DNA from: Mustelus asterias
Taxonomy: Eukaryota
NCBI RefSeq assembly: GCF_964213995.1
Contig: NW_027590122.1
Coordinates: 1,922,001 to 1,986,000 of the forward strand
Reading direction: 5' to 3'
Length of the DNA stretch: 64,000 nt
This document shows, piece by piece, positions 5,116 to 58,678 of this stretch (within the stretch, counting starts at the first letter, position 1; each line of letters begins with the position of its first letter). A program made the position numbers and the translations under genes. Below the pieces are notes generated by a model. That model searched no databases. It had not been told where the DNA came from and was given only the letters and a program-made list of their open reading frames with translations.

Positions 5116-5967
5116 ATGGAGAAACAGTGGAAATGTGGGGACTGTGGGAAACGATTCAATTTTCCATCCCGGCTGGAAATCCATCGACGCGTTCACAGTG
5201 GGGCTGGCACGATGGAAAAACTGTGGCAATGTGTGGAATGTGGGAAGGGATTCAATTATCCATCCCTGTTGGAAATTCACCAACGCAGTCACACTGGAGA
5301 GAGACCATGGAAATGTGAGGAATGTGGGAAAGGATTCAATTATCCATCCTTGTTGGAAAACCATCGATGCAGTCACACTGGGGAGCGGATTTGCAAATGT
5401 GAAGAATGTGGGAAAGGATTCAATTATCCATCCCTGCTAGAATACCATCGACGCAGTCACACTGGGGCAGGGGCCATGGAGAAACCGTGGAAATGTGAGG
5501 ATTGTGGCAAAGGATTCAATTTCCCATGCCTGCTGGAAATCCATCGACGCAGCCACACCGGGGAGAAGCCATTCTCCTGTTCTGTGTGTGGGAAGGGATT
5601 TACTAAGTCAACCAACTTACTGAGACACCAGCGAAATCACACTGAGGAGAAGCCCTTCAGCTGCACTTACTGTGAAAAGAGTTTCGGACAGTTATCCAAC
5701 CTCACTGCACACCAGCGGGTTCACACTGGGGAGAGACCATTCACCTGCTGTATGTGTGGTAAGGGATTCACTCAGTCAGCCAGCCTCATGTTACACCAGC
5801 GAATTCACACAGAGGAGAGGCCATTCAGCTGCACGCATTGTGGAAAGAGGTTCAGGCAATCTTCCGACCTCACTGCACACCAACGCACTCATACTGGGGA
5901 GCGACCATTCACCTGCTCTGTGTGTGGGAAGAGATTTACTCACTCAAGTGGCCTTTGGTCACACTAG
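5116..5967 (+). CDS. C2H2 zinc-finger protein, 9 complete fingers, truncated by TAG in finger 10
   Basis: ATG of MEKQWKC at 5116; repeated CxxC-x12-HxxxH with TGE(K/R)P linkers; premature TAG (likely from CAG) at 5965-5967. Confidence 0.75.
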   Translation: MEKQWKCGDCGKRFNFPSRLEIHRRVHSGAGTMEKLWQCVECGKGFNYPSLLEIHQRSHTGERPWKCEECGKGFNYPSLLENHRCSHTGERICKCEECGKGFNYPSLLEYHRRSHTGAGAMEKPWKCEDCGKGFNFPCLLEIHRRSHTGEKPFSCSVCGKGFTKSTNLLRHQRNHTEEKPFSCTYCEKSFGQLSNLTAHQRVHTGERPFTCCMCGKGFTQSASLMLHQRIHTEERPFSCTHCGKRFRQSSDLTAHQRTHTGERPFTCSVCGKRFTHSSGLWSH

Positions 5968-6586
5968 CGAATTCACACCGAGGAGAAGCCATTCAGCTGC
6001 ACTTCCTGCGGTACGGCGGCACGGTAGCACAGTGGTTAGCACTGCTGCTTCACAGCTCCAGGATCCCGGGTTCGATTCCCGGCTCGGGTCACTGTCTGTG
6101 TGGAGTTTGCACATTCTCCTCGTGTCTGCGTGGGTTTCCTCCGGGTGCTCCGGTTTCCTCCCACAGTCCAAAGATGTGCGGGTTAGGTTGATTGGCCAGG
6201 TTAAAAATTGTCCCTTAGAGTCCTGGGATGCGTAGGTTAGAGGGATTAGTGGGTAAAATATGTGGGGGAAGGGCCTGGGTGGGATTGTGGTCGGTGCAGA
6301 CTCGATGGGCCGAATGGCCTCCTTCTGCACTGTAGGGTTTCTATGTTTCTATGTTTCCTGTGAAAAGAGGTTCAGACATTCTTCCGCCCTCACTGCACAC
6401 CGACGCACCCACACTGCGGATAGGCCATTCACCTGCTCCGAGTGTGGGAAGGGATTCTCTCAGTGCTCTCACCTGCAGACACACCAGAGAATTCACACTG
6501 GGGAGAGGCCGTTCACCTGCTGTGTGTGTGGAAAGGGCTTCACTCAGTCACAGCACCTGTTGACACATCAGCAAGTTCACAAGTGA
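5968..6586 (+). pseudogene. Detached 3' fingers (11-13) of the 5.1 kb ZNF gene, split by a SINE
   Basis: RIHTEEKPFSCTS continues after the stop; [14 protein letters not shown]...HQQVHK* resumes after the SINE. Confidence 0.85.
6013..6356 (+). mobile_element. HE1-like tRNA-derived SINE, full length
   Basis: A box (AGTGGTTAGC), B box (GGTTCGATTCC), central GGGTTTCCTCCGGGTGCTCCGG domain, CR1-like tail (TTTCTATG)n. Confidence 0.92.
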
Positions 6587-7199
6587 CAGCAGTTGTTGAA
6601 TTCTGTTATTGCTGCTGTTAATTTTGTCAAGGATTGATCATCTGAATATATCTGGTTTGTTTCTGCCGATTAAAGAATAACTGGCTGGAGTTTAATATTC
6701 TGGAGATGTTACTGATTCTCAGGAGTGCAGTTTTGGGTTTTGAAAGCACCCTCTGATCTCTCCTTCATCCAAGAACTCATGATAGGCACTCAATTACAAA
6801 ATTCTGAACTATTACTTCAATCCTAAATTGATCTGTGGTACAACATTGACAATTCAGTGTCTGAGAAGTTCCACTGATTAACATCTCCAATTAGAAAGTG
6901 CTGAGTAATCTTTGCTGATAATTCTTACTGGCTTGCACATTACACAGTGACACCTCCATTATGAAATTATCATGGAACATTAAACAGAATGGTGAAATAT
7001 TTTATACATCAATAAAAGAGGAAATCTGTGATGTGAATTGGACTATGAAGGGACAGACAGCACAATACCACAGCTAATGATCTACAGATTACCGAAATCT
7101 TCAAACATTATTTTGCTTCATTGTACTCTGGGAGAGAGAATAGATAAATAAAAAATTGAGTGATCAGATGAGTAATGAGAAGTTCATTTAAAATCAAGA

Positions 7200-8410: not shown

Positions 8411-8434
8411 TTTACCCCGTTTGCATCATGGATC

Positions 8435-11519: not shown

Positions 11520-12026
<507 letters not shown>

Positions 12027-14169: not shown

Positions 14170-14800
14170 TGACCATGCATGCGCTCTGTTGCCCAAGATG
14201 GTGGTCGCTAACCTAGAATCATAGAATCCTACAGTGCAGAAGGAGGCCATTCAGCCCATTGAGTCTGCAGGTCCTATCCCCATATAACCCCATGCATTTA
14301 CCCGAGCTCGTCCCCCTGATACTAAGGGGCAATTTATCATGGCCAATCCACCTAATCCACACATCTTTGGACTGTGGGAGGAAACCGGAGCACCCGGAGG
14401 AAACCCACACAGACAGTGACCCAAGCCGGGAATCGAACCCGGGTCCCTTGTGCTGTGAGGCAGCAGTGCTGACCACTGTGCCACCTGGGCCAGTGCCCAG
14501 GAATGAATCCCCGGAGCTGCAATCTCGACTCTCATTCTGGGCTTGCGGCCTCCGGCGGGTGTTTGTGAAGCCTCCGCTCCCCCCACCCCAGCCAGTCTCC
14601 CGGCTCCATTCCTCCCTCCGCCCGACCGACTCTCACCCGCTGGAAAAAGAAGCTCCCGCACTCGCGGAACTCTGAACAAAGTGACACTGCGCATGCTCCG
14701 GATACAGCAAGGCGCCTGCGCACTGGACTCCTGTGGAGTGAATAGGGCACTTGTAGGGCCGCAGGGAATGGTGGGTAATAGCACGGCCATTGAATTGACA
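14170..14800 (-). promoter_or_regulatory. CpG promoter/exon 1 (inverted paralog of 51100-51460) interrupted by a SINE
   Basis: TGCGCATGCTCC and CAAGATGGTGG (decayed YY1); long homology to the reverse complement of 51.1-51.46 kb. Confidence 0.7.
14213..14484 (-). mobile_element. HE1-like SINE
   Basis: tRNA A/B boxes and tail on the minus strand. Confidence 0.9.
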
Positions 14801-21173: not shown

Positions 21174-21976
21174 TCAATCCTGGCTGTGATTAAAAGCAGA
21201 ATCCAATCCTTGCAGTCTATTATGAATTTGCTGGTGTCTCAGCAGGCTGGAGGACCTTGTGAATGCCTTTCCACACAAGGAGCAGGTGAAAGGCCTCTCC
21301 CCAGAGTGAGTGCGTCGGTGAGTCAGGAGGTTGGATGACTGCTTGAAACTCTTTCCACAGGTACTGCAGCTGAATGGATTCTCCTGAGTGTGAGTGCGGT
21401 GGTGGGACTGGAGGGTGAATAACCGAGTGAATCCCTTCCCACACACCGAGCAGGTGAATGGTCTCTCCCCAGTGTGAAGTCGCTGGTGTCTCACCAGATC
21501 AAATGACTGGGAGAATTTCTTCCCACACACGGAGCAGGTGAACGGTCTCTCCCCGGTGTGAGTGCGTTGGTGAGCAGTCAGGGTGGATGACTGCCCGAAA
21601 CTCTTTCCACAAGAAGTGCAGCTGAACGGTTTCTCCTCAGTGTGAATTCGCTGATGTGTCCAAAGGCCGGATGACCGAGTGAATCTCTCACCGCACACAG
21701 AGCAGGTGAATGGCTTCACCCCAGTGTGAATCCGCTGGTGTGTAGCGAGACTGGATGTGCTGTTGAACCTCTTCCCACAGTGAGTGCAGCTGAAGGGCCT
21801 CTCCTCAGTGTGAATTCTCTGGTGTAACATCAGGTATGTTGTCTTGGTAAATCCCTTTCCACACACACAGAACAGACGAATGGCTTCTCCCCAGTGTGAC
21901 TGCGTTGATGGATTTCCAGTCGGAATAAAGACTTGAATCCTTTACCACAGTCCCCACATTTCCAAGGTTTCTCCAT
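21174..21976 (-). pseudogene. C2H2 ZNF gene with 9 fingers and a +2 frameshift in finger 2
   Basis: [13 protein letters not shown] at 21976; extra TG unit in the TCTGTGTGTGTGG run at about 21860-21870; the rest of the frame is open to 21174. Confidence 0.8.
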
Positions 21977-24754: not shown

Positions 24755-25381
24755 TCACTTGTGAACTTGCTGGTGTGTCAGCAGGTGGGCTCGCTGACTG
24801 AATCCCCTCTCACACACTGAACAGGTGAATGGCCTCTCCCGGGTGTGAATTCGCTGGTGTGTCAAAAGGTTGGATGAAGTTGTGAATCCTTTCTCACACA
24901 TGGAACAAACGAATGGTCTCTCGCCAGTGTGAACTCGCTGGTGTGTAAGCAGGTTTGATGAATTAGTGAATCGCTTCTCACACACAGAGCAGGTGAATGG
25001 CCTCTCCCTTGTGTGAACACGCTGGTGTGTCAGCAGCTGGGATAACTGAGTGAATCCCCTCCCACAAACAGAGCAGGTGAATGGCTTCTCTCCAGTATGA
25101 ACTCTCCAGTGTATCAGAAGCTCAGATGACTGAGTGAATCCCTTCCCACACACACAACAGGGGAACGGTCTCTCCCCTGTGTGAAATCGCTGGTGTCTCA
25201 GCAGAGTGGTGGACTGAGTGAATCCCTTCCCACATACAGAGCAGGTGAATGGTTTCTCTCCAGTGTGACTGCGTCGATGAATTTCCAGCAGGGATGGATA
25301 CTTGAATCCCTTTCCACAATCCCCACATTTACACGGTTTCTCTGTGGGGCTGGTATCCTTGTTTCTCTCCAGGTTGGTTGA
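24755..25381 (-). pseudogene. C2H2 ZNF reading frame with 7 intact fingers but no start ATG
   Basis: Frame open from the TGA at 25384-25382 to 24755; ACA at 25345 where paralogs have ATG. Confidence 0.65.
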
Positions 25382-25929: not shown

Positions 25930-26225
25930 TAAAGTAAAGTCCATTTATTAGTCACAAGTAGGCTTACATTAACACCGCAATGAAGTTACCATGAAAATCC
26001 CCGAGTCGCCACACTCCAGCGTCTGTTCGGGTACACTGAGAGAGAATTTATCATGGCCAATGCACCTAACCAGCACATTTTTCAGATTGTGGGAGGAAAC
26101 CGGAGCACCCGGAGGAAACCCAACGCAGACACGGGGAGGACATGCAAACTCCACACAGACCCAATCTGGGAAACGAACCCAGGTCCCTGACGCTGAAAAG
26201 CAGCAGTGCTAACCACTGTACCATT
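25930..26225 (-). mobile_element. HE1-head SINE variant with an alternative tail
   Basis: Same head and core, but ends GTAAGCCTACTTGTGACTAATAAA. Confidence 0.85.
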
Positions 26226-26267
26226 TGTCAAATTTTTGACAAATTTAACAAAAAAACCCAATTTTAA

Positions 26268-26612
26268 GGGCGGCACGGTAGCAGAGTGGTTAGCACTGCT
26301 GCTTCACAGCTCCAGGGACCTGGGTTCGATTCCCGGCTTGGGTCACTGTCTGTGTGGAGTTTGCACATTCTCCTCGTGTCTGCGTGGGTTTCCTCCGGGT
26401 GCTCCGGTTTCCTCCCACAGTCCAAAGGTGTGCGGGTTAGGTTGATTGGCCATGCTAAAAATTGCCCCTTAGTGTCCTGGGATGCATAGATTAGAGGGAT
26501 TAGCGGGTAAAAATATGTAGGGATATGGGGGTAGGGCCTGGGTGGGATTGTGGTCGGTGTAGACTCGATGGGCCGAATGGCCTCTTTCTGCACTGTAGGG
26601 TTTCTATGATTT
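26268..26612 (+). mobile_element. HE1-like SINE, full length
   Basis: Near-identical to 6013-6356. Confidence 0.92.
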
Positions 26613-26929: not shown

Positions 26930-27440
26930 TAAACCCCGCCCCCCCGGCACTGACCTCTCACCCGACACCTCACAATGCCCGGGGACTGATTGACGGCAGC
27001 TCCGGGCCAATAGAAGGAGAGGAGGCTGGACGGTCGCGAGGGAGCTGCTGGTCCTCCGACCAATCGGAGTGAATGAGGGGCGGGGCTGAGTGAAGCATGC
27101 GCAGTGTGATTAATGGCGGTGGAGACATTCTTTCTCGGATCCACAATCAGTAAAGGTGGGAATGGCGGGGCGGAGGACGCGATAGACCAGGCGGGGGTTT
27201 GGAGAGGCGTCGTAAACATGTTACGTAAACTGAGAACTCTTGAAAAGAACCGAGCGATATCAGAGGATGGTCCCAGCCCTCAGCGCAGAGCAGGGCCTCA
27301 GCATTCTCCCAGTTACAGACCCGGGTTCATCAGGGCCATCGTCATCGGGGAACGAGCAACACGGCGCGTGCGCAGTCGCCGTCTTCAGTCGGCGCGCGAG
27401 CAACACGGCGCATGCGCAGTCGCCATCTTTGTTTGGGGCA
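26930..27440. promoter_or_regulatory. Probable bidirectional CpG promoter between the minus-strand (24.8 kb) and plus-strand (29.2 kb) ZNF genes
   Basis: CCAAT/GC module; duplicated GAGCAACACGGCGC(G/A)TGCGCAGTCGCC; GCCATCTTT (YY1-like). Confidence 0.7.
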
Positions 27441-27559
27441 ATGTTTTGGAATTACCACTGACAGAATGTGAATAACTTGACCATCGACCTGCTTCACCCT
27501 TTCACTTCCAATTTCTTACTGACGAGAACAACGATATCAGGGCAGTTGCAATCATTTAT

Positions 27560-29223: not shown

Positions 29224-30177
29224 ATGGAAGGAAAAAGCACCGTTCACAGTGGGGAGAAACCATACTCGTGTTCCGTTTGCGGACAAGACTTCAACCAATC
29301 ATCTGGCCTGTTCAAACATAAATGCAGTCATGATGGGGAGAAGCCGTGGAAATGTGGGGTCTGTGGGAAGGGATTCAATTACCCATCCCAGCTGGAAACC
29401 CATCGGCGTGGTCACACCGGGGAGAGGCCGTTCACCTGCTCGGACTGCGGGAAGGGATTCACTAAGTTATCCACCCTGCAAAATCACCAGCGCACACACA
29501 CTGGGCAGAGGCCATTCACCTGCTCTTTGTGTGGGAAGGGATTCACTCAGTCATCCACCCTGATTAAACACAAACTAATTCACACTGGGGAGAGACCATT
29601 CACCTGCTCTGTGTGTGGGATGGGATTCACTCAGTCATCCACGCTGCTGACACACCAGCGAGTTCACACCGGGGAGAAGCGATTCACCTGCTCTGAGTGT
29701 GGAAAGGGATTCACTCACAAATCCACCCTGCTGACACACCAGCAAGTTCACACGAGGCAGAGACCATTCACCTGCTCCCAGTGTGGGAAGGGATTTGTTA
29801 ATTCATCCATCCTAATTACACACCAAAGAGGCCACACTGATGAGAGACCGTTTAAGTGTCTGAAGTGTGGGAAATGTTTTAAAACCTCGCAGGAACTGGT
29901 GTCCCATCAACAAGTTCACACTGACGAGAAACCATTCAGATGCTCTCACTGTGGGACTGGGTTCAGGCGATCATCTCATCTCACTGTCCATCAGCGGGTT
30001 CACACCGGGGAGAGACCATTCACCTGCACCAAGTGTGGGAAGAGATTCACTCAGTCATCCGCATTGCTGAGACACCAGCAAGTTCACACCGGGGAGAGAC
30101 CGTTCACCTGCGCCAAGTGTGGGAAGAGATTCACTCAGTCATCCGCATTGCTGAGACATCAGCAAGTTCATAAATAA
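29224..30177 (+). CDS. C2H2 zinc-finger protein, 11 fingers
   Basis: Uninterrupted ORF from ATG ([13 protein letters not shown]) to TAA; the last two fingers are a near-identical 84-bp duplication. Confidence 0.88.
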
Positions 30178-32750: not shown

Positions 32751-33149
32751 TTCATTTTAAAAGTTGCTCTGTGTCAAACTCCAGGAGAAAACTGGACCTT
32801 TCTGTTTGTGGCTTTAAACAGATGGAGCCCAGTGGGTTCGGAGCAAACAGATCAACATTTGTCACTGAAATGTGGGAGCATGAGAGAGCAATTCACAACA
32901 ATTGTAGGGCTGAGTTAAAGGAATAACTGAGCAGACAGGGATTGTCACCATTAAAACAACAGACCCTTGTTTCAGTAAATGAACCGACAAGAGGGTTAGG
33001 GCAGGTTTGGATAAGGTTAATACTGTCATCATTCAGAACAACACAGACTATAAAGGAACAACTGATCTGAGAGAAAAATTCATGTGCTGTGAGGGAGAGG
33101 TATGCTGAATCAGGTTCAAAGATCTTAAATAATGTTTCTTCTTGAATCA

Positions 33150-33685
33150 CTACAGTGGAGAAAGAGGCCAGTCAGCCCATCGAGTCTCACCGACTCTTCC
33201 TCGGCTTACCCCTAACCCATACACTAAGAGGCAATTTGCCATGGCCAATCCACCTAACCTGCACATCTTGGGAGTGTGGGAGGAAACTGGAGCACTCTGA
33301 GCAAACCTATGCAGACACAGGGAGAACGTGCAAACTCCACACAGAGAGCTGTGGCACAGTGGTTAGCACTGCTACCTCAGAGTGCCAGGGATCCGGTTCA
33401 ATTCCGGTCTTGGGTGACTGTCTGTGTGAAGTTCGCATGTTCTCTCCGTATCTGCATGGGTTTCCTCCGGGTGCTCAGGTTTCCTCCCACAGTCTGAAAG
33501 ACATGCTGGTTAGGTGCATTGGCTGTGCTAAATTCTCCTTCAGTGTACCCAAACAGGCGCCGAGTGTGGCGACTAGGGGATTTTCATAGTAACTTCATTG
33601 CAGTGTTAATGTAAGCTTACTTGTAATACCTGAACCCAGAATTGAACTCAGGTCCCTGGCGCTGCTGATCACTGTGCCACCCTGC
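33150..33685. mobile_element. Minus-strand HE1-like SINE split by a plus-strand SINE variant (33349-33627)
   Basis: Minus copy breaks at CCACACAGA (about 33345); its head resumes at about 33630-33685. Confidence 0.8.
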
Positions 33686-35626: not shown

Positions 35627-37140
35627 TCACACATGAAGTCGTCTATGTTTCAGCAGGCTGTAATACTGAGTAAATCCCTTCCCACACATGGAGCAGTTGA
35701 AAGGTTTTGCCCCAGTGTGAACTCGCTGGTGTCTCTGCAGGCGGGATGGATCAGTGAATCCCTTCCCACACACAGAGCAGGTGAACGGCTTCTCCCCGGT
35801 GTGAACTCGCTGGTGTGTCTGCAGGCGGGATGGATCAGTGAATCCCTTCCCACACACAGAGCAGGTGAACGGCCTGTCCCCTGTGTGAATGTATTGGTGT
35901 CTCAGCAGGCCAGACGACTGAGTGAATCTCTTGCCACAAATGGAGCAAGAGAATGGCTTCTCCCCTGTGTGAGTGCGGCGGTGTGTCCGGAGGCTGGATG
36001 ACTCGGTGAAAGCCTTCCCACACTCGGAGCAGATGAACGCCCTCTCCCCGGTGTGAACAGGCCGATGTTTCAGCAGGTGTTGTGAAGAAGCAAATGCTTT
36101 CCCGCACACAGGGCAAGCGTAAGGCCTCTCCCCTGTGTGAACACGCTCGTGCATCACAAGCTGGGATGAACAAGGAAACATCTTCCCACACACGGAGCAG
36201 AGGAATGGCCTCTCCCCAGTGTGAACTCGCCGGTGCCTCAGAAGATAGTGAGACCGAGTGAATTCCTTCCCACACACCGAGCAGGTGAACAGCTTCTCCC
36301 CAGTGTGAACTTGCTGGTGTGTCAGCTGGTCAGTTGATTGAACTTCTTCCTTTCTACACATTGAGGAGGTGAATGGTTTCCCTCCAGTGTGAATACTCTT
36401 GTGTGTCAAAAGGTGTGAAAATCGAGTGAATCTCTCCCACACAGGGAGCAGAGGAATGGCCTCTCCCCAGTGTGAACTCGCTTGTGTGTCAGAAGATGAG
36501 ATGAATGAGCGAATCTCTTCCCACAAACAGAACAGGGGTACGGCTTCTCCCCGGTGTGAGTGCCCTGGTGTCTCAGCAGACTAATCCTTCTTTTGAAGGT
36601 CTTCTCACATTTAAAACATTTAAAATGTCTCTTCTGAGAATGAACCAGTTGGTGAACGGTGCAGTGGGAGGACTGAGTGAATCTCTTCACACACTGGGAG
36701 CAGCTGAATGGCCTGTCCTTGGTGTGAACTTGTTGGTGCTCAGTGAGATGCACTGAGTCACTGAATGACTCTCCACAATGAGTGCAGCTGAACGGTCTCT
36801 CGTGTGTGTGAAGGAGCTGGTGCTCTGCAAGGCGGGAGGACTGGCTGAACCTCTTCCCGCAGTGGGAGCAGCTGAACGGTCTCTTGTCAGTGTGAAGGAG
36901 CTGGTGTTGGGCCTGTTCCTCAGGCGTCTCAACGCTGTCCCCAGAGTCAGAGCTTTGAAGAGGCTTCTCATCAATGTGATCGAGTTGGTGAGCCAGCAGG
37001 TTGGACGAACACATGAATTTCTTCCCACACACGGAGCAGGTGAATGAACTCTCACTATTGCGAGCTCGCTGTCATGTCAGCATGTTTACCAGCTGATCAA
37101 TCCCTTCCCACAGGAGGAGCAGATGAACGGATTCTCACCA
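35627..37140 (-). pseudogene. Long C2H2 ZNF (about 18 fingers, some degenerate) with a 1-nt frameshift
   Basis: Overlapping ORFs 36406-37032 and 35627-36526 joined by a missing A in GGG-AAG-AGA near 36435; stop in the first finger; no PWKC leader finger. Confidence 0.8.
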
Positions 37141-37293
37141 GCTTCCTGCTGAGATGGTCAATTAAATCCCTTCAGATGCACAAATTTTCAGATCCCGATG
37201 AACCGATTGACTGTCAGACGTGAGATTCGATCATCCAGACTGCAGATCCTTCTCTTCAATTTCCTGCAAAATCAGTTTACAAAGAATTACATG

Positions 37294-37585
37294 GATGGCA
37301 CAGTGGTTAGTACTCCTGCCTCACAGCACCAGGGACCTGGGTTCGATTGTAGCCTTGGTTACCTGTCTGTATGGAGTTTGCGCATTCTCCTCGTGTCTGT
37401 GTGGGTTTCCTCCGGGTGCTCCAGTTTCCTCCCACTCTCCAAAGATGTTCGGGTTAGGTCGTTGCCCCTTTCTGTCCCAAGATGTGTAGGTTAGGGAGAT
37501 TAGCGGGGTAAATATGTGGGGTTACGGGAATAGCCTGGGTGGGGTGGTCTGAAAGGCCTCCTTCTGCACTGTAGAAATTCTATGA
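37294..37585 (+). mobile_element. HE1-like SINE
   Basis: A/B boxes, core and tail. Confidence 0.88.
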
Positions 37586-38479
37586 ATACATGAGATACAC
37601 AAAACACAAACAGGCCAGTCTATTTTTTAAATTCATTTTTAACGGGGTGTGGGCGTCGCCGACTGGGACAGCATTTATTGCCCATCCCCAACTGCCCTCC
37701 ATTTCACAGGGCATTTGAGAGTCAACCACATTGCTGTGGGTTACATGTAGGCCAGACCAGTTAAGGCCAGCAGATTTCCATCCTTAAAGGACATCAGTGA
37801 ACCAGGTGGGTTTTTACGACAATCAACAATGGTTTCATGGTCATCATCAGACTTTTAATTGAATTTAAATTTCACCATCTGCTGTGGTGGGATTCGAACC
37901 TAGGTCCCCAGAACATTATCCTGGGTCTCTGCGTTGCTAGTCCAGTGATAGTTCCACTGTGTCACTGCCTCCGCCGCCACCCTCCCACCCCTGCCCTGAT
38001 CTGTATTGGAATTTCTAATCCACATAAATCTCCTCTCATTCTGCTCACCTTAACTCAGCTTTTCAGCTCAACTTTTTAATTCTTTTTCTCTCATGTTCTC
38101 ATCTGGTTTCCTTTTTAAAGCATCTAAAGTATTTGTCTCAACCACTTCCAGTCGCAGTGAGTTCCATATTCTAACAAGAAATAAATAACTCCTCCTGTTT
38201 GATTTATTCGTCTCTGTTGTCTGTACATGGTTCCCAGTATTGGAAACACCAACAAGTGGAAACATTCCATTCCCATCTACCTACTTATCCCATTCAGAAA
38301 GCCCATATCAGAAGAGACAACATTTTTCTCTTGGTTTGAGCTTATTGTGTGTAAATCCTCCCTTTCTAACCCCCTGTTTAAGAAAAAGTATCCAAAATCC
38401 ATCACGATAGAAAATCGCAATATTGTCTCAGGTACAAGTAATTCAGAAAACTATTATTTATTGTGAGGGGAATTGAGTA

Positions 38480-39490: not shown

Positions 39491-39494
39491 CTAT

Positions 39495-39849: not shown

Positions 39850-40560
39850 GAAGCCCCGCCCACTCGCTGTTGCATCACCAAGACACCGCGCATGCGCTCT
39901 CCTCCCTGCTGAATCAAGATGGCGGCCGTTAACCTGAGTCTCGTCTCGGGAAAAAGACCGGAAGCTGCAAACACAGACCGACGGGCTCATTTTCGAGATT
40001 TGAGGCCTTGACCAGGTATTTAGAAACCCTCTACGTCCATCCGCCGGTTCCATTGCTCCCTCTACGTTTCCGCATCCTTACCGGCTGCTGATGAGACAGA
40101 GGAACTTCTCTCCGATTGCGATCACCCACACTGCGTGGGGCAAACGCCGTTGCTTACTGCGCATGCTCCAGACTGTAACATTACTGCGCATGCGAACCCC
40201 TTCCCGTGCGTTCTATGGGGACACCTCAGCCCCGCCCCTCATTCAGTCCGATTGGATGGAGGACCAGCCGCTCCCGCTCGGTCCTCCAGCCCGCCCCCTA
40301 TTCCTATTGGTCCGGAGCGGCCGTCAATCAGTCCCCGGGCATTGTGATGTGGAGCATGCGCAGTGTCATTGCTGTCCTTGGCGCTTGTTTGTCCCGGAGA
40401 AGTGGAGTCAGCGTTAGGCGGTGGCTGGGAGGATTTGGAAACACTTTGTGGATCCGCAAACCCTTCAGAATCATTGTCAGCTCCCTGGTTTGCAGCTGCG
40501 GGGCTTCTCCCTCCCTCCCTCCCGGGAACAGGCCCAGGTTAACGGCCCCATCCTGGCTCA
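39850..40560. promoter_or_regulatory. Probable bidirectional CpG promoter between the 35.6 kb (minus) and 41.3 kb (plus) ZNF genes
   Basis: GCGCATGCGC, CAAGATGGCGGC (YY1), two TGCGCATGC sites and the CCAAT/GC module. Confidence 0.75.
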
Positions 40561-41343
40561 GCCACTGGAGGATGGTTCACATCAGAGGATGGGGGAGGGG
40601 GACAATAAATAAGAGGTTACACTTTGGCCTCAAATCAATGAGGACTCTGATCTCTGGGAAGGAAGGAAACCCTGGGAGGTGGGCGGGGAGGATTCACAAA
40701 CACCCGCTGGAGGCCCCACCACCCCCAATAAGACCCATTGGTTTTATTGTCAGTCTGCAGACAGGAGCTGGAGAACTGAACCCAGACAGAGGAGAGGGAG
40801 GGAGAAAACTGGGAGTGGAGGAAAGAAATGGTGAGATGGGTTTGGATTTCAGCCCAGGGAGGAGGGAGAGTGTGTGGTACAGGGATTTACTGATTTGGGG
40901 GAACAAGAGAGGCAATTTTCTTTTTAGCATGGCCAATCAACCTAACCCGCACATCTTTGGACTGAATTTCTATCTCGATTGACCGTGACAATTTTTGTTA
41001 ACTCCTTTTACAGGTGAGGTGAGGAAACATCACATAAAAATCAGATTGAGTATCGACTTATTTGGACCTGAATATCCTGAGACTTTGAACGTGGAAGGAG
41101 AAATGTTTGTCTGTTCTGCCTGGAGGAGAAGATTTCAAACATCAGTGTGACTGGAAAAGCACTGAGACACACACACCCAAGTGAGAGTGTTCCAGTGAAC
41201 TGACTGGAAAAAGCTTAAACCAGTTACACAGCCTGAAAAAACATCACACCATTCACAGCTGGGAGAAACTGTACATATGTTGTGTGTGTGGACAAGACTT
41301 CAACTGATCATCCAACCTGGAGAGACACAAGGACACTGGCACT

Positions 41344-41877
41344 ATGGAGAAACCATGGAAATGTGAGGACTGTGGGAAGGGATTCAATTATCCTTCCCAT
41401 CTCGAAACTCATCGTCGCAGTCACACAGGAGAGAGACCGTTCATCTGCTGTGTGTGTGGAAAAGGTTTTGTTCAGTCACAACACCTGCAGTCACACCAAC
41501 GCTCTCATTCCAATAAGAGACATTTAAAATGTTCCAACTGTGAGAAGAGCTTTAAGAGCAAAAAGCACTTGAAACAGCACCAACACACACACACTGGAGA
41601 GAGGCCATTCATCTGCTCTGTGTGTGGGAAGGGATTCACTCAGTCAGCCACACTGATGAGACACCAGCAGACTCACACGGGAAAAAGGCCGTTCACCTGC
41701 TCAGTGTGTGGGAAAGGATTCATTCAGTCATCCACCCTGCTGAGGCATCAGCGGGTTCACACTGGGGAGAGGCCGTTCCCTTGCTCCAAGTGTGGGAAGG
41801 AATTCACTCGGTTAGACACTCTCAGTTTGCATCAACATGTTCACACTGAAAAATTACTTTTTAAACATTACGAATGA
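41344..41877 (+). CDS. C2H2 zinc-finger protein, 6 fingers (decayed extra fingers to about 41990)
   Basis: MEKPWKCEDC ORF of 177 aa. Confidence 0.82.
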   Translation: MEKPWKCEDCGKGFNYPSHLETHRRSHTGERPFICCVCGKGFVQSQHLQSHQRSHSNKRHLKCSNCEKSFKSKKHLKQHQHTHTGERPFICSVCGKGFTQSATLMRHQQTHTGKRPFTCSVCGKGFIQSSTLLRHQRVHTGERPFPCSKCGKEFTRLDTLSLHQHVHTEKLLFKHYE

Positions 41878-42476
41878 GAGAAGAGTGAGTTGCAGACACA
41901 CCAATGCATTTGTGTTGAAGAGTGGATGCTCACCTGCTCTGTCTGTGGGAAGGGACTTATTCAGTCACAACACCTATTGAGACATCAGTCAGTTTTTGTG
42001 CAAGGGTGGGATTCTGTCAATCACTTCCATTGTGTGTTTCTGCTCATGTTAAACTCCAACCCTGTTATAGGAGTTATTGATATTCTAGATAAATGTCACT
42101 AAGTCAGTTTTTATGGAAATGCGCAGTGCTGTGTTAATATTTCTCCAATGGAAGAGGAGACTAATTGATGTCCTGCTACCAGCTTCATTTGGGGCCTTTG
42201 CTCATTTCGAACTCTAGATTATTTCAGTTCTCACGCCTTCGGTTATTCTCGTGGACAATTCTCAGCTCCCCATATTTTCCAGAGTGTCTCTCCTGGTGCT
42301 GGGATCCAGGGAAGTTATCGGTCACAGTCCTGTGATCAGTAAAGCTAAAACCAAGTCTGCTTGTTGTTTTTGACTCTTGGACTTCACCCCTGTCCCAAAA
42401 CATCTCTCTCTTCTTTGACATGTGAATGGAACATGATGCCTGCAAACCTGGTTTAAATTGAAATCGTCTCAGCAAA

Positions 42477-43403
42477 TTTAACAGGAACCTGCAGGCTGAC
42501 GAGATTGTGTTACACTGTCAGTGTGTTCCTGTACAGCTCTGTATTTAACAGGAGCCTGCAGGCTGATGAGATTGTGTTACACTGTCGGTGTGTTCCTCTG
42601 CTGCTCTGTATTTAACAGGAGCCTGCAGGCTGATGAGACAGTGTAACACTATCAGTGTGTTCCTGTACTGCTCTGTATTTAACAGGAGCCTGCAGGCTGA
42701 TGAGACAGTGTAACACTATCAGTGTGTTCCTCTACTGCTCTGTATTTAACAGGAGCCTGCTGGCTGATGAGACTGTGTTACACTGTCAGTGTGTTCCTGT
42801 ACTGCTCTGTATTTAACAGGAGCCTGCAGGCTGATGAGACTGTGTTACACTGTCAGTGTGTTCCTGTACTGCTCTGTATTTAACAGGAGCCTGCAGGCTG
42901 ATGAGACTGTGTTACACTGTCAGTGTGTTCCTGTGCTGCTCTGTATTTAACAGGAGCCTGCAGGCTGATGAGACAGTGTTACACTGTCAGTGTGTTCCTG
43001 TACTGCTCTGTATTTAACAGGAACCTGCAGGCTGATGAGATTGTGTTACACTGTCAGTGTGTTCCTGTGCTGCTCTGTATTTAACAGGAGCCTGCAGGCT
43101 GATGAGACAGTGTAAACTGTCAGTGTGTTCCTGTACTGCTCTGTATTTAACAGGAACCTGCAGGCTGATGAGACTGTGTTACACTGTCAGTGTGTTCCTG
43201 TACTGCTCTGTATTTAACAGGAGCCTGCAGGCTGATGAGACAGTGTTACACTGTCAGCGTGTTCCTCTGCTGCTCTGTATTTAACAGGAGCCTGCAAGCT
43301 GATGAGACAGTGTTACACTGTCAGTGTGTTCCTGTACTGCTCTGTATTTAACAGGAGCCTGCAGGCTGATTAGACTCTTCTCCGGTCAGTGTGCTCCTGT
43401 ACA
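42477..43403. repeat. Tandem array of a 67-bp unit: 13 full copies plus a diverged 14th
   Basis: Unit TTTAACAGGAGCCTGCAGGCTGATGAGAC(A/T)GTGTTACACTGTCAGTGTGTTCCTGTACTGCTCTGTA starting at 42477, 42544, 42611 ... 43280, 43347; one unit is 66 bp. Confidence 0.97.
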
Positions 43404-45112: not shown

Positions 45113-46223
45113 TCATTTGTGAACTCGCTGGTGTGTCACAAGCTGTGATGACAGAGTGAATCAAAGAACAAAGAACAGTACAGCACAGGAAACAGGCCCT
45201 TCGACCCTCCAAGCCTGTGCCGCTCCTTGGTCCAACTAGACCAATCGTTTGTATCCCTCCATTCCCTTCCCACACATTGAGCAGGTGAACGGCCTCTCCC
45301 CAGTGTGAACTCGCTGGTGTCTCAGCAGATGGGATGACTGAGTGAATCCCTTCCCACAGTCAGAGCAGGTGAACGGCCTCTCTCCAGTGTGAACTTTCTG
45401 GTGTTTCAGGAGTTGGGATGACTGAGAGAATCTTTTCCCACATACGGAGCAGGTGAATGGCCCCTCCCCAGTGTAAACTCGCTGGTGTTTGAGGAGTTGG
45501 GATGACTGAGAGAATCTTTTCCCACAAACGGAGCAGGTGAATGGTCTCTCCCCAGTGTGAACTCGCTGGTGCAACAGAAGCTGGTATGACTGAGTGAATC
45601 CCTTCCCACACTCAGAGCAGATGAATGGCCTCTCCCCAGTGTGAACCTGCTGGTGTGTCCGAAGGTGGTGTGGTTGAGTGAATCACTTTCCACACACAGA
45701 GCAGATGAATGGCCTCGCCCCAGTGTGACTTCGCTGGTGTGTGAGCAAGTCAGATGACTGAACAAATCTCTTCCCACACTCAGAGCAGATGAACAGTCTC
45801 TCCCCAGTGTGAAGTCGTTCGTGTATTTGCAGATACCTTTTGCTCTTAAAGCTCTTATCGCAGTCAGAACATTAAAAAAGTCTCTGATCACTGTGTACAT
45901 GTTGATGTTCAGTGAGCTGGCATGACTGAGTGAATTCGTTGCCACACACAGGCCTGATGAATGCGCTCTCCTCAGTGTGAACTTGCTCATGCGCCAGCAG
46001 GTCACGAGTCAGCAAATTCCTTCCCACACATGGAGCATCTGAACGGCCTCTCCCCAGAATGAACTGGCTGGTGTGTCGACAGACTGGATAACTGAGTAAA
46101 TCCATCTCCACACATGGAGAAGGTGAACGGTCCCTCCGCAGTGTGACTGTATTGATCATTTCCCAGTTCAAATGGGAACATTAATCCCATCCCACAATCA
46201 CCATATGTCCATGCTTTCTCCAT
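45113..46223 (-). pseudogene. C2H2 ZNF pseudogene (about 12 fingers)
   Basis: Degenerate leader finger, frameshift near 46005, TAA at 45872, CR1 3' fragment inserted in the last finger. Confidence 0.88.
45163..45264 (-). mobile_element. About 100-bp 5'-truncated CR1 3'UTR inserted in a zinc finger
   Basis: Splits GGGAAGGGA|TTCACT; TGTTCTTTGTTCTTT tail; matches 48278-48378. Confidence 0.88.
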
Positions 46224-46567: not shown

Positions 46568-46790
46568 CGACACAGTAGCACAGTGGTTAGCACTGCTGCT
46601 TCACAGCTCCAGGGACCTGGGTTCGATTTCCGGCTCGGGTCACTATCTGTGTGGAGTTTGCACATTTTCCTCATGTCTGCATGGGTTTCCTCCGGGTGCT
46701 CCAGTTTTCTCCCACAGTCCAAAGATGTGCGGGTTCGGTTGATTGGCCATGCTAAAATTGCCCCTTAGTGTCCTGGGATGCGTGGATTAG
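46568..46790 (+). mobile_element. HE1-like SINE (3'-truncated) at the start of the ZNF leader exon
   Basis: A/B boxes and core. Confidence 0.88.
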
Positions 46791-47904
46791 ATACCTCTGA
46801 ACAAAAAAACTGAATTTGAAAATCTGGCCACTGCCTGAAGTATTGGAACCACGCAGGGATGATAAGATCTTCAGACAGAGACACCACCCCCCCACCCCCA
46901 AACACACACGCACACATGCACCCGCACACACACGCACTTCATGATCTGTTGGTAAGATTTCCTGAAACCCCAGAAGCTGGCTTTTATCAGGTGGCACATG
47001 GGACATTATACTGGGATAGCAGTGTTAGTGTGTAGATGTGATATGTTATATGTGGTTTAATTAACCTGTGGAAATGCCTGGTGAAGCTGCATTGAAGAAC
47101 GGGTCCCTGATATGCTCAGCTGATCTAACAGAACAACATTGACTGATTAATGTGGTCAGTAGAATGGGACAACATTTTAAATCATCAAGGTATTGACACA
47201 GACTCCACAGACAAACTGACGTTAAAATAAACAGGACAGAATTAAAGACACTGAAATCGATCAGAAGAGTAAAATTAAACTGAAGAGGCATATAGAAAAT
47301 ATCCACAAGATGGATTTGGGTGAAAAGGGAGTTGAGAATCTTTAAAGTTGAACTTTTGTTTCAACCAGAGGTACTTACCACAAATCAGTAATATAGATTT
47401 GCAAGTGATGATCTACAGTTCAGGATAAATCAACGTCAACCGGTATCACATTTTAGTGAAAATGTGTTTCTGTTGCTGATTCTGATCATTCTCGTTGCTT
47501 TAATATGTCATCAATATTAAGTAATCAAGAAATTAGGGAAAAACAATTGTAGCTTCGGAATAGCTGCATTAATCAGAAATCAGTTTGTGAGAATCAATAA
47601 GAATTTTCCCTTCTCAAGGTGGGAGATTGACAACTGATAGAATATGAAGGCATTTCTTAAATATTACCGGAATGGTTCATTCCCCCTCTCACTTCCATAG
47701 CAGTTGCTGGGTGACAAACACAGGACAGGCCTGTTATCACTGTCCAGGATATGTCTCCCTCACAGACAATGAAACAAGATATTTCTAACTCTGATACAAT
47801 TTGATCTCATGACTTGGATGGCCAGCCATGATCCTCATGAATGGTGGAGCAGGCTTGTAGGGCCAAATGGCCTCCTCCTGCTCCTATTTTCTCTGTTTCT
47901 ACAA

Positions 47905-51094: not shown

Positions 51095-51590
51095 TTACAA
51101 TGGCGCTGCTGTTAACCACCATTCCTTGCGGGTGTGAAAGTACCCTATTCACTCCACAGGAGCCAATGCGCATGCGCGATGTTGTATGTGGAGCATGCGC
51201 ATTATCACTTTGCTCGGAGCCCTGCGAGTGCGGGAGTCGCTTTTTTCAACGGGTGAGAGTGTGTGGGGCGGAGGGAAGAATGAAGCCGGGAGTCAGGGTG
51301 GGGAGGGAGTGGAGGCTTCACAAACACCTGCTGTAGGCCGCAAGGTCCGAATAAGAGCCTGCGGGTCCCGGGTTTGCAGCTGCGGGGATTTTATCCGGGA
51401 TCAGGCCCAGTGCCGCGGCCGCCATCTTTGTTCAGCGGGGAGCAGAGCGCATGCGCGATCAGTCGGCGGTGCTTCAGGGTCCCGGTGACCAGGAGAGGGA
51501 AGGTTTGACTCACTGACTGACAGGGCGGGTTAATTGGCGCTCTCTTCAGAGAGGGAAGGTGCTGCAGGGCGAATGTGCGGCCACCCGAAT
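51095..51590 (+). promoter_or_regulatory. CpG promoter/exon 1 for the 52-54 kb ZNF units
   Basis: CCAATGCGCATGCGC, GCATGCGCA, GGCCGCCATCTTT (YY1), GCGCATGCGC and CAGGGTCCCGGTGACCAGGAGAG. Confidence 0.75.
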
Positions 51591-53236: not shown

Positions 53237-54169
53237 ATGGGAAAACCGTGGAAATGTGGGGATTGTGGAAAGGGATTCAGATCCCCATCTGAGCTGGAAA
53301 CACATCGACGCAGTCACACTGGGGAGAGGCCATTCACCTGCTATCAGTGTGGGAAGAGATTTACTAATTCATCAGACCTGCTCACACACCAGCGAGTTCA
53401 CACTGGGGAGAGGCCATTCACCTGCTCTGATTGTGGGAAGAAATTTAGTATTTCATCCAATCTAGTGAGACACCGTCGAGTTCACTCTGGGGAGAGACCA
53501 TTCACCTGCTCAGTGTGTGGAAAAAGATGCAGAGATTCATCCACCCTGCTGGTACACCAGCAAGTTCACACCAAGGAGAGGCTGTTCACTTGTTCTGAGT
53601 GTGGGAAGGGATTCACTCGGTTATCCAGTCTGCAGAGACACCATCGCGTTCACACTGGGGAGAGACCATTCACCTGCTCAGAGTGTGGGAAAGGATTCAG
53701 AGATTCATCTGACCTGCTGGCACATCACCGAGTTCACACTGGGGAGAGGCCATTCATCTGCTCCGTGTGTGGGAAAGGATTTGGAGATTCCTCCACCCTG
53801 CTGACACACCAACGAGTTCACACTGGGGAGAGGCCGTTCACCTGCTCCAATTGTGGGAGGGGATTCAGTCAGTTAGCCAATCTGCTGAGACACCAGCAAA
53901 TTCACAGCGGGGACAGGGAGAGGCCTTTCACCTGCTCGGAGTGTGAGAAGCGATTCAGTGATTTACCTACCCTGCTGACACACCAGCGGGTTCACACTGG
54001 GGAGAAGCCATTTACCTGCTCTCAGTGTGGGAAGGGATTCAATCGGTCATCGAACCTGCAGACACACCAGCGAGTTCACACTGGGGAGAGACCATTCACC
54101 TGCTCTGACTGTGGGAAGGGATTCACTCAGTCATCCCACCTGCTGAGACACCAGCGAGTTCACAAGTGA
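53237..54169 (+). CDS. C2H2 zinc-finger protein, 11 fingers
   Basis: Intact 310-aa [13 protein letters not shown]...HQRVHK. Confidence 0.92.
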
Positions 54170-55496: not shown

Positions 55497-55762
55497 CCTC
55501 TCCCTCGTTACTCCCCGGCCTCTCCCTCGTTACTCCCCGGCCTCTCCCTCGATCACACCCCGGCCTCACCCTCACTCCCTCCCTGGCCTCTCCCTCGATC
55601 CCTCCCTGGACTCTCCCTCGGTCACTCCCCGGCCTCTCCCTCGGTCACTCCCCGGCCTCACCCTCGATCCCTCCCTGGCCTCTCCCTCGATCCCTCCCTG
55701 GCCTCTCCCTCGATCCCTCCCTGGCCTCACCCTCTATCCCTCCCTGGCCTCTCCCTCGGTCA
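55497..55762. repeat. C-rich 22-bp minisatellite, about 12 copies
   Basis: Variants of TCCCTCGTTACTCCCCGGCCTC and TCCCTCGATCCCTCCCTGGCCTC. Confidence 0.9.
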
Positions 55763-55799
55763 GTGCACAGTCTTTCTCTCGTAACCCTGAACATTTTTT

Positions 55800-56240
55800 T
55801 TTCTCTTCAGATAATTATCCAGTTGTGTTTTGAAATCTTGTTTGAACCTTCCTCCTCCCCACACTGGGTCAGTGCACGCCAGGTTCTAACCACTCACTCT
55901 GGAAACGGGATTTCCTCAAATCACCATTGCTTATTTCACAAATCACCTTTAATTTGTGTCCTCTGCTTCTTAACCTTTTTGCCAATCAGAATAGTTTCTT
56001 CCGATCTACTCTGTCCAAATCCCTCTTGATTTTGAATATTTCTATCGAATCTCCTCTTCTCTATAGAGATCAGCCCCAGCTTTGCCAATCTACCCTCATA
56101 ACTGAAGTTTCTCATCCCTGGAACCAGTCTCATGATTTTTTTCTGCATCCTCTACAATGTCTTCACCTCCTTCCTGTAGCGATCTATCCGGAGTTGGCCA
56201 CAATGCTCCAGTTGAGGCTGAACCAATGTTTTATTCTGGT
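55800..56240 (-). mobile_element. Degraded CR1 fragment (another at about 57050-57470)
   Basis: MRLVPGMRNFSYEGRLAKLGL. Confidence 0.7.
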
Positions 56241-57541
56241 TCATCACAACTTCCTTTGTTATTCTCGGGAATTTGGACATCAGCCTTTCTCCTGTCAATA
56301 TACAGCTGCCTTATGGGGTTGTAGTCACACATTTGAAAGAGCTGCCCATCAGCCCCACTCCCCTCCCCTTTCTCCAGAGCCCTGCTAACTTTACCTTCAA
56401 CTGGAGATCCAATTCACTTCAGAAAGATGTATCTGAATCTGCTTCCATCCCCTTTCAGGCAGAACATTCCAGAACAAAATTAATTGAGAAATGAATGCCC
56501 CCAGTGGATTTTTCCCAATTATTTGATGCTACGTATTTAATTGTTGATCTTCTGTTTAATACATTTCCAGAGCAGATTTAAGGGAAAATGTTCATGACAT
56601 CTTAGAGATGAACCACACGAAACACTGTCTGTTTGAAACAAAGCTGATTTATTTGATGTATTAAAATATTAAACTCCAGCCACATTACAGGAGTTAACAT
56701 CAGCAAAATAAAAGCCAGAATTAATGTGATTCAATCCTAAATATGATCAACAGCAGCAACAAAAGCAGAATCCAACTCCTCTAGAGACACTGTCTGAGAG
56801 TCAGTGCAGACTCGATGGGCTGAATGGCCTCCTTCTGCACTGTAGGGATTCTATGAAAAGTAAAGTCAAGATTAAAATAAATAAAGATTCTCCAGCTAGT
56901 CACTAATCAGCCTTTTCCATTTTTCTGAAGTCACCTTATAATTATTTATCTCCTAAATTTGATGAATTAAACATAATCTGCAATTATATGATAAATGATC
57001 AGTTTTATACAAATTAATGAATCATGTCTTACTTTATAGTTGGATAATGCAGTGACCAGAACTGTGCTCAGTATTCTAGCTGTGTTCTAACTCGTCTTTT
57101 ATCAGTTCTAACGTAATCTCCCTGCTCTTATATTCCAGGCCTCAGACAGGAAAGTGTCCCAAATGCCTTCTTGACCATCTGATCTCCATGTGCAGCCATC
57201 TTCAGGGATCAGTGGATATGCACTCCAAAGTCCCTCTGTTCCTCTATAATTCTCAACATCATCCCATGTATTGTTCATTCCCTTGTCTTGTTTACTCTCC
57301 CAAATTCAATCTCTCTCATTGATCCAGATTGAATTCTACTTGCTATTTTTGTGTTGACTCACCCCCCCAGTCCATTAATATCTTCCTGCTGTCCACAGCT
57401 TTATTCCTCATTGTCAACCATGGGAGAAACTTTTGTATCAGATGCAAACTTAGTAATCATTTTCCACACAGTTGAGCCGAAATTATTGACACATACCAGA
57501 AAACTGTGGAACACCACTGGAAACAGGCATCTTGGCATCAT

Positions 57542-58678
57542 TCAGTCCTGGGTGTGATGAACAGCAGAATCCAACCCCTGCTGTTGCCTGTGAACTTGCT
57601 GGTGTTTCAGCAGGTTGTTTGACTGAGCGAATCCCTTCCCACACATGGAGCAGTTGAACGGCCTTTCCCCAGTGTGAACTCGCTGGTGTTTCAGCAGATT
57701 CTGTTTACTTTTAAATCTCTTCTCACAATCAGAACATTCAAAAGGTCTCTGATCAGTGTGAACAAGTTGGTGTGTAGTCAGGTGGGATGACTGAGTGAAT
57801 CTCTTGCCGCACAGGGGGCAAGTGTAAGGTCTCTCTCCAGTGTGAACTCGCCGGTGTATCAGAAGGTCAGATGCATCAATGAATTCCTGACAACACACAG
57901 GGCAGGTGAACGGCCTCTCCCCAGTGTGAACTCGATGGTGTCTCAGAAGGTGGGCTAACCGAGTGAATCCCTTCCCACAGAGAGAGCAGGTGAATGGCCT
58001 CTCTCCAGTGTGAGTGTGCTGGTGTTTCAGAAGATCCTTTTTGCTTTTAAATGTTTTATCACATTCAGGACAATTGAAAGGTCTCTGATCAGTGTGAACA
58101 AATCGGTGTTTCAGGAGCTGGGATGAACAAGTGAATCCCTTCCCACACACGGAGCAGATGAACGGCCTCTCCCCAGTGTGAGTGCGTTGGTGAATCAGTA
58201 AATCCTTTTTACTTTTAAAGTTCTTCTCACACTCACAACATTTAAATGGTCTCTGATCAGTGTGAACACTTTGGTGTGTCAGGAGGTGGGATGACTGAGT
58301 GAATCCCTTACCACACATGTTGCAGATGAATGGCCTCTCCCCAGTGTGAGTGCGTTGGTGAATCAACAAATCCTTTCTGCTTTTAAAGCTCTTCTCACAA
58401 TCAGAACATTGAAACGGTCTCTGATCAGAGTGAACCTGGTGGTGAGTCCGGAGGTTTGATAAAGCATTAAATCCCTTCCCACATTGAAGACAGGTGAATG
58501 GCCTCTCACCAGTATGGACATGCTGGTGTGTGTACAGGCTGGATGACTGAGTGAATCCCTTCCCACACACAGAGCAGGTGAACGGCCTCTCCCCAGTGTG
58601 AATACGTCGATGGGTTTCCAACTCAGATGGGTAATTGAATCCCGTCCCACAGTCCGCACATTTCCACGGTTTCTCCAT
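57542..58678 (-). CDS. C2H2 zinc-finger protein, 13 fingers
   Basis: Intact 378-aa [13 protein letters not shown]...; alternating two-finger repeat. Confidence 0.92.
   Translation of the reverse strand: MEKPWKCADCGTGFNYPSELETHRRIHTGERPFTCSVCGKGFTQSSSLYTHQHVHTGERPFTCLQCGKGFNALSNLRTHHQVHSDQRPFQCSDCEKSFKSRKDLLIHQRTHTGERPFICNMCGKGFTQSSHLLTHQSVHTDQRPFKCCECEKNFKSKKDLLIHQRTHTGERPFICSVCGKGFTCSSQLLKHRFVHTDQRPFNCPECDKTFKSKKDLLKHQHTHTGERPFTCSLCGKGFTRLAHLLRHHRVHTGERPFTCPVCCQEFIDASDLLIHRRVHTGERPYTCPLCGKRFTQSSHLTTHQLVHTDQRPFECSDCEKRFKSKQNLLKHQRVHTGERPFNCSMCGKGFAQSNNLLKHQQVHRQQQGLDSAVHHTQD

Follow-up and report, generated by a model that had tools for sequence, protein, structure and literature searches.

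A constrained leader finger fronts a large finger-only C2H2 zinc-finger family of sharks and rays and may offer a docking face

What keeps one unusual finger at the front of gene after gene in a zinc-finger cluster? The question is raised by a 64,000-nucleotide stretch of the Mustelus asterias genome (contig NW_027590122.1, positions 1,922,001 to 1,986,000; hereafter the window), where some twelve genes and gene remnants contain 91 C2H2 fingers with the CxxC-12-HxxxH pattern. A first-pass annotation had named nine places where such a finger, here called the leader, stands at or next to the amino terminus, and had proposed that this constant finger binds a cofactor rather than DNA. All nine leaders are present, three of them atypical (21976, 25345 and the degenerate copy at 46223), and a full leader with an ATG start stands at 5116, 11520, 41344, 53237 and 58678. 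The leader finger is real, non-random in position and under selection, and pairwise counts reject two ideas alike: that it is merely a copied edge and that every part of it is constant. Our tentative reading, to which we give a probability of about 45% from sequence comparison, is that the leader may still touch nucleic acid while offering a fixed outer face as a dock for a family-wide partner protein.

The leader is confined to the front of the array

A 22-base pattern over the leader start has 2,341 matches in the surrounding 3.68-Gb genome and none when reversed. Recent duplicates are numerous, so this is a copy count and not a number of distinct genes; the leader of gene 41344 has 27 identical copies, its own included. 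Position was scored in 141 sequences (the window and 140 stretches of 10 kb, read singly; 1.46 Mb of the genome), with an array defined as an open reading frame (ORF) of at least five fingers with an upstream stop in view (n = 117) and a leader-type finger as one with Glu or Asp at helix position +5 together with Trp before the first Cys or Pro at +1. Leader-type fingers account for 91 of the 117 first fingers, 13 of the 117 second fingers and 3 of 895 deeper ones, all three in gene 5116, where they are tandem copies. The positional restriction first proposed therefore stands, with a leader as finger 1 or 2 in 99 of 117 arrays; some of the 10-kb stretches had been picked at leader matches, and blocks from contiguous runs alone give 69 of 87 arrays with a leader. 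With gene 5116 excluded, Pro+1 combined with Glu or Asp at +5 occurs in 0 of 888 fingers at position 3 or deeper, and Glu+5 in 2 of 888. The last finger of the arrays has no comparable private signature. In a representative profile search, which ranked proteins by finger number and not by leader likeness, 138 of 150 proteins lacked a recognised leader, and Pro+1 with Glu or Asp at +5 appeared in 1 of their 3,163 fingers.

Residues were counted in 77 intact genes chosen by homology of the 5′ untranslated region (UTR) alone, one of 78 having been dropped for a missing Cys pair. Of the residue pattern originally described, Pro+1 (77 genes), Trp (73) and Glu+5 (72) hold up, and Thr or Ile at +6 does not, this position being Ile in 35%, Thr in 24% and Ala in 21% of 79 genes. 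Broken genes of the UTR-anchored set retain Pro+1 in 22 of 27 cases and Glu+5 in 19 of 27, the losses arising partly through frameshifts. Variation at the contact positions −1, +3 and +6, ascribed at first to the downstream fingers, is indeed found in other fingers (3.1, 3.2 and 2.8 bits), but the leader is almost as variable there (2.5, 2.9 and 2.5 bits). Arg or Gln occupies −1 in 1 of 91 leaders versus 484 of 892 other fingers, Asn or His occupies +3 in 6 of 91 versus 383 of 892, and Arg or Lys occupies +6 in 4 of 91 versus 305 of 892. The contact positions of the leader thus vary yet nearly avoid the usual base-reading residues, making it a poor canonical base reader that is still changing.

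Selection is split within the leader

Genes were compared in two ways. In the UTR-anchored comparison, 74 non-redundant intact genes picked by UTR homology only formed 37 independent pairs by UTR distance, and observed amino-acid changes were set against those expected from UTR differences; since the pairs were chosen for similar UTRs, the expectation is lowered, so that low ratios are conservative and high ones inflated. At Trp, Lys, +1 and +5 of the leader, 11 changes were observed against 66.9 expected (0.16), so that purifying selection on these sites far exceeds that on the neighbouring non-coding DNA; the zinc ligands and core gave 13 against 97.5 (0.13) and +8/+9 gave 17.5 against 51.4. 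By contrast, leader positions −1, +3 and +6 show an excess of amino-acid change (105 against 46.3). Synonymous changes in the leader numbered 191 against 136 (1.40), and at position +1 there were 15 synonymous changes and 0 amino-acid changes. In fingers 2–4, which are not necessarily orthologous in UTR-paired genes, the four sites Trp, Lys, +1 and +5 gave ratios of 1.4–1.9.

A second comparison used 15 and 26 pairs with collinear fingers 2–4, drawn from 97 genes, and rests on pairwise counts and not on site models. The relaxed collinearity filters behind these sets were adopted after a strict filter left 5 pairs only, a number below what a test requires, in which the contact sites of fingers 2–7 had a ratio of non-synonymous to synonymous difference (pN/pS) of 0.30. 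At Trp, Lys, +1 and +5, pN/pS was 0.15 and 0.10 in the leader versus 0.78 and 0.78 in fingers 2–4 (Fisher 4e-4 and 3e-9), whereas pS was 0.137 and 0.231 in the leader versus 0.142 and 0.189 in fingers 2–4. Because synonymous divergence of the leader is not reduced, copying or gene conversion does not explain the fixed residues. Contact sites of fingers 2–4 had pN/pS of 1.82 (1.32–2.25) and 1.69 (1.42–1.99). With CpG sites removed the contrast holds, at 0.09 and 0.08 for the diagnostic sites of the leader and 1.79 and 1.73 for its contacts.

The signature persists in rays

Relatives of the family occur in sharks (Chiloscyllium, Cetorhinus, Carcharodon, Heterodontus, Mustelus, Scyliorhinus, Stegostoma and Pristiophorus) and in rays (Amblyraja, Leucoraja, Rhinoraja and Narcine). 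Six proteins from these four batoid genera contain 7 Pro+1/Glu+5 fingers among 57; they were found through leader queries and so show presence, not frequency. All seven carry Arg at +8/+9, stand at the front of the array and are retained although their flanks differ from those of sharks. Trp, presented at first as a hallmark, is constrained in sharks but is not the key residue, being missing in 6 of the 7 batoid leaders. The split between sharks and rays is more than 200 million years old, and the deep signature narrows to Pro+1, Glu+5 and Arg+8/+9. A Pfam scan of 6 of 6 window ORFs examined found no KRAB (no PF01352), SCAN or BTB, as the first-pass annotation had it, and ESM Atlas, PDB sequences and Pfam returned generic C2H2 matches only.

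Remnants of a four-finger front in the 5′ UTR

The start Met lies at the Gly position of the TGEKP linker in 80 of 91 first-position leaders versus 2 of 1,022 other fingers, and in 69 of 78 genes the context combines G at +4 with a purine at −3. Judged by this context, the linker ATG would be the start codon, and named shark proteins (P0001, P0002, P0010, P0179 and P0180) start at MEKPWK. Upstream of the leader, the same predicted exon, a structure drawn from motifs only, contains an acidic spacer and three decayed fingers. Of 74 genes, 60 have an in-frame stop at most 20 codons ahead of the leader start, and none is open for 90 codons; UTR indels are mostly frame-breaking, with multiples of three making up only 3,390 of 18,940 in pairwise comparison. 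Stops also interrupt 135 of the 137 places in the genome that match the intact front. On these counts, an upstream effector exon cannot be joined in frame in most genes. The joint from promoter to last exon is absent among the 15 joints listed from contigs of four presumed-RNA runs (four organisms), contigs that cover the array and parts of the upstream region.

Two genes with an intact four-finger front remain.

L146:5898-7049, − strand, contig C1: isolated intact gene with the spacer and all three upstream fingers
L152:4330-5584, + strand, contig C857: single-copy intact gene with a four-finger front, finger 4 carrying Pro+1 and Glu+5

Finger 4 of the C1 gene is homologous to the leader at the DNA level, with a score of 3.2 when the diagnostic codons are left out, above all 677 ordinary fingers and below all 79 leaders; a possible first exon of this gene spans 13 codons and matches in phase. 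The C857 gene is open from the acceptor and has no Met until the middle of the first finger; further upstream it is hidden by the contig end and by 4.3 kb made up largely of simple repeat. Its finger 4 carries Pro+1 and Glu+5 behind an intact front, so the signature arose in an internal finger. Differing truncations keep the leader: the linker ATG, a class starting with MEGKS that has one finger in front (gene 29224), loss of that front finger too (L015, L105 and P0007) and a skate start at MEDHM. Most copies have turned the three upstream fingers into 5′ UTR and start in the old linker; the order of these events, with truncation later than the signature, is read from the architecture.

Read-through or selenocysteine insertion at the many UTR TGA stops was ruled out, since frameshifting indels dominate and ordinary codons, those for Trp and Cys among them, fill these places in the intact genes. 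A conserved peptide from a promoter-proximal ATG was likewise rejected, the peptides not being conserved.

A candidate docking face and its alternatives

On a helical wheel, +1, +5, +8 and +9 fall at 0, 40, 340 and 80 degrees and +2, +3 and +6 at 100, 200 and 140, so that the first four form a stripe facing away from the other three. From this periodicity we infer that the fixed residues form one surface. In the mechanism we propose, the fast-changing −1, +3 and +6 of the leader would contact nucleic acid, the fixed set of Pro+1, Glu+5 and Arg+8/+9 (plus Trp and Lys in sharks) would lie on the outer face of the helix, and this face would dock a partner protein common to the finger-only C2H2 family. 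The excess change at −1, +3 and +6 suggests that the finger still contacts something variable, and an outer face fixed across proteins of differing DNA specificity is, in our cautious estimate, what a common partner might impose; the surface would accordingly be a putative protein-binding one. The residues are also kept where the leader is finger 2 and, in the C857 gene, finger 4, and so are not an amino-terminal end effect. By analogy with KRAB- and FiNZ-ZNFs, the family may recruit chromatin repressors to repeats. A broader extension of that analogy, which we regard as unlikely, would have one finger of an ancient four-finger front become a corepressor dock, the part upstream be shed repeatedly and thousands of finger-only proteins silence transposons, as the elasmobranch counterpart of KRAB and FiNZ.

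Several observations weigh against a docking face. Leader −1, +3 and +6 have pN/pS of 2.28 (1.34–3.43) and 1.60 (1.23–2.10) in the collinear pairs, and contact sites that change this fast mean that the leader is not a pure protein-binding module. Over all sites, pN/pS in the closer pairs is 0.59 in the leader versus 0.57 in fingers 2–4 (0.46 versus 0.62 in the other collinear set). The picture of a constant finger that binds a cofactor rather than DNA finds no support here, and greater conservation than in other fingers applies to Trp, Lys, +1 and +5 and not, in closer pairs, to the whole finger. The data that were tested had also supplied the diagnostic sites, and Pro+1 was a requirement for the collinear set though not for the UTR-anchored one. 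By our rule 18 of 117 arrays have no leader. Most of these are frameshifted pieces and some are apparently intact; +5 is Lys, Ala or Gln in several, and in one subfamily the leader is deleted. The fourth finger of the C1 gene is ordinary in its residues (Tyr, Leu+1, Gln+5 and Gln+8). Pro in the first helical turn and a Glu–Arg pair at i,i+3/4 are ordinary helix stabilisers, and mouse ZFP568, a KRAB protein that binds DNA, has Pro+1 in its fingers 1 and 3.

These points feed the alternative that the fixed residues serve the fold of the finger itself or its contact with nucleic acid, whether by helix capping or by an end-of-array clamp on DNA backbone, nucleosome or RNA, and that the proteins are bare DNA-binding competitors. 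We hold this account to be somewhat unlikely. It is favoured by contact positions that diversify as in other fingers, by Pro+1 in the DNA-binding fingers of ZFP568, by a Trp that is dispensable in rays and by finger-only ZNF146/OZF, which according to the available part of PMC8896011 binds LINE-1. Yet Glu+5 is almost absent from deeper fingers, ordinary first or last fingers need no such residues, the leader is nearly without base-reading residues, and the fixed set is retained at finger positions 1, 2 and 4. That retention in an internal finger also counts against an improbable alternative, in which the leader is a family-wide targeting or turnover signal (nuclear import, degron, or ubiquitin or SUMO contact) unrelated to silencing. 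Constraint on the basic Lys, Arg+8 and Arg+9 and the small size of proteins that have no other constant part would suit such a signal, but Pro+1 and Glu+5, the most specific residues, are not import-like, and Arg (96% of 79 genes) stands where ubiquitin-binding fingers have an acidic residue.

Two further explanations we consider very improbable. One, largely refuted, takes the leader to be constant merely as the fixed front edge of a block that is copied whole or gene-converted; recent mass duplication, with the 27 identical leader copies, and a promoter cassette 97–100% identical across divergent genes do indicate homogenisation of the 5′ end. Synonymous divergence of the leader nevertheless equals that of other fingers and exceeds that of the UTR, change is free at codons −2, −1, +3 and +6 but not at +1 and +5, a private signature is absent from the last finger, and Pro, Glu and Arg survive in rays with different flanks. 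In the other, the leader is incidental and the true effector is encoded by an upstream exon hidden from view, on the model of KRAB- and FiNZ-ZNF genes. The last exon does open with an acidic spacer behind a phase-2 acceptor, the C857 gene is open from that acceptor with no early Met and its upstream part hidden, and the C1 gene has its possible short first exon in phase. Against an upstream effector stand the in-frame stops close to the leader, the frame-breaking UTR indels, the stops in nearly all genome matches to the intact front, the lack of conservation in promoter-proximal ATG peptides and the named shark proteins that begin at the leader. For the docking face that we prefer, Pro+1, Glu+5 and Arg+8 within a 27-residue finger provide a precise, mutable handle, and the two intact four-finger genes are natural controls.

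Relation to known zinc-finger systems

C2H2 fingers that bind proteins include the dimerisation fingers of Ikaros, the FOG fingers and UBZ. The proposed leader face would resemble them in using the C2H2 fold through a non-DNA surface, although no common sequence signature joins them. UBZ has an acidic residue two after the first His, a position at which the leader has Arg as noted above, and in window proteins PF18439 is matched best by stretches of downstream fingers. The tandem CWCH2 motif of Zic/Gli, as given in the available part of PMC2837044, differs in having Trp between the two Cys in two adjacent fingers; the Trp of the shark leader precedes the first Cys by two residues and is confined to one finger.

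KRAB-ZNF clusters of tetrapods and other sarcopterygians are alike in forming a large clustered family in which a spacer precedes a single long finger exon, base-contact positions change fast and pseudogenes are many, and the shark family likewise has clustered genes with a tandem TGEKP-linked C2H2 array in one exon. Unlike in KRAB-ZNFs, the constant part in sharks is a C2H2 finger inside the finger exon, with no KRAB in the six ORFs scanned; a genome-wide KRAB search gave no match but had no positive control and is uninformative. The KRAB-ZNF expansion is placed outside cartilaginous fishes in the available parts of PMC8455134 and PMC11603059. The FiNZ-ZNFs of cyprinids, as described in the available part of PMC10547256, share lineage-specific expansion, a constant amino-terminal element (about 28 residues in FiNZ) whose effector role is likewise unproven, and positive selection at contact residues, matched in shark fingers 2–4 by an excess of amino-acid change in pairwise counts. 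FiNZ differs as an acidic non-finger peptide on its own exon; in most shark genes no conserved upstream coding exon can join in frame, a result obtained without a FiNZ profile. Transposons are de-repressed after FiNZ-ZNF knockdown in zebrafish (same available part). Human ZNF146/OZF, in the accessible portion of PMC8896011, is similarly made of fingers only, as are the shark proteins when the start codon is taken from context and not from complementary DNA, but it is a single gene with demonstrated LINE-1 binding and no family-wide leader.

The available supplement of PMC10547256 counts 3,586 tandem ZNF ORFs in Scyliorhinus canicula, 1,851 in Carcharodon and 1,223 in Amblyraja; Wells et al. 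thus counted shark ZNF ORFs by the thousands, and sharks go unmentioned in the available main text. Sharks and rays have among the largest tandem zinc-finger counts on record, without a known effector domain. No paper on the shark leader finger was found in the full-text literature searched, which leaves most subscription journals outside. New here are the split selection pattern with its synonymous control, the narrowed deep signature and the two intact four-finger genes.

Genes, promoters and repeats of the window

Several window genes lie head to head about GC-rich promoter-like blocks. Genes 29224 (11 fingers), 41344 (6), 53237 (11) and 58678 (13) are apparently intact, and gene 5116 is only perhaps so, with nine fingers followed by a stop and a repeat insertion. 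The first-pass annotation had missed the five tandem leaders of gene 5116, a tenth fragment near 13064 (−) and a leaderless array at 35627-37071 (−).

5116..5556, +: five tandem leader-type fingers fronting a 283-codon, 9-finger ORF (5116-5967)
11520..11600, +: leader finger of a pseudogene of the short-UTR class; stop after 52 codons
13000..13075, −: tenth, truncated leader fragment near 13064, fossil UTR upstream; ends approximate
21896..21976, −: leader finger without Pro+1 (LFRLEIH); the gene frameshifts after 48 codons
21977..22305, −: fossil 5′ UTR, spacer and three decayed fingers; predicted splice acceptor 22306
25265..25345, −: leader finger with Cys replacing Trp and ACA replacing ATG; 7-finger ORF to 24755
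26966..27475, no strand: GC-rich promoter-like block between head-to-head genes 25345 and 29224, with CCAAT and GCGCATGCGC-type motifs
29224..30177, +: intact 11-finger gene with MEGKS start; leader in second place (29335-29415)
40226..40826, +: cassette resembling a promoter and first exon; 40425-40826 and 59729-60125 share 97.5% identity though the genes differ
41014..41343, +: fossil 5′ UTR, three decayed fingers with stops and frameshifts; predicted acceptor in front
41344..41877, +: intact gene of 6 fingers, with the leader at 41344-41424
46143..46223, −: degenerate leader of a pseudogene
51098..51512, no strand: promoter-like block flanked by genes 46223 and 53237, which lie head to head
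53237..54169, +: intact gene of 11 fingers, with the leader at 53237-53317; predicted acceptor 53087
57542..58678, −: intact gene of 13 fingers, with the leader at 58598-58678
59729..60828, −: cassette of gene 58678 resembling a promoter and first exon, broken by insertions

The CCAAT and GCGCATGCGC-type motifs of block 26966..27475 presumably correspond to NF-Y and NRF1. The 149-base UTR of gene 53237 holds an in-frame stop. In gene 58678 an insertion (58679-58804) parts the usual start from the leader, and past the insert the equivalent codon position is occupied by an ATG. Two to five tandem leaders define a subfamily (window 5116-5556; L026, L031, L040 and L080) in which Pro+1 and Glu+5 are retained throughout. 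The array at 35627-37071, with L066 and L077, belongs to a subfamily that lacks a full leader; L077 keeps a PSQLET remnant fused to the linker that follows. Near-identical copies of genes 41344, 46223, 53237 and 58678 lie at L067-L069 (C71, 5.14-5.17 Mb) as segmental or haplotype duplicates.

The cassette, about 480 bases long (window 40330-40830 and 59729-60125), is near-identical in more than 12 genes with widely different coding parts, with further copies at L017, L024, L031, L040, L067, L073-L076, L080, L088, L096 and L099. It carries frameshifting indels and is therefore non-coding. Between genes 41344 and 58678 identity is 97.5% in the cassette, 83% in the leader and 63% in fingers 2-3, and the likeness of the cassettes suggests recent promoter spreading or conversion.

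Among the repeats, a long interspersed nuclear element, which we take to be CR1-like, keeps an open frame of 956 codons for endonuclease and reverse transcriptase at 60918-63788 (−), with a near-identical frame in L147 on contig C1. Tandem repeats occupy 42476-43402 (67 bases, 13.9 copies) and 55497-55762 (23 bases, 11.7 copies). A short interspersed repeat with a transfer RNA (tRNA)-like head recurs at 6015-6348, 14217-14485, 26047-26611, 28110-28430, 32596-33546, 37289-37594 and 46568-46791, some copies forming inverted pairs, and the one tRNA-like match in Rfam, at 14418-14490, lies inside this repeat.

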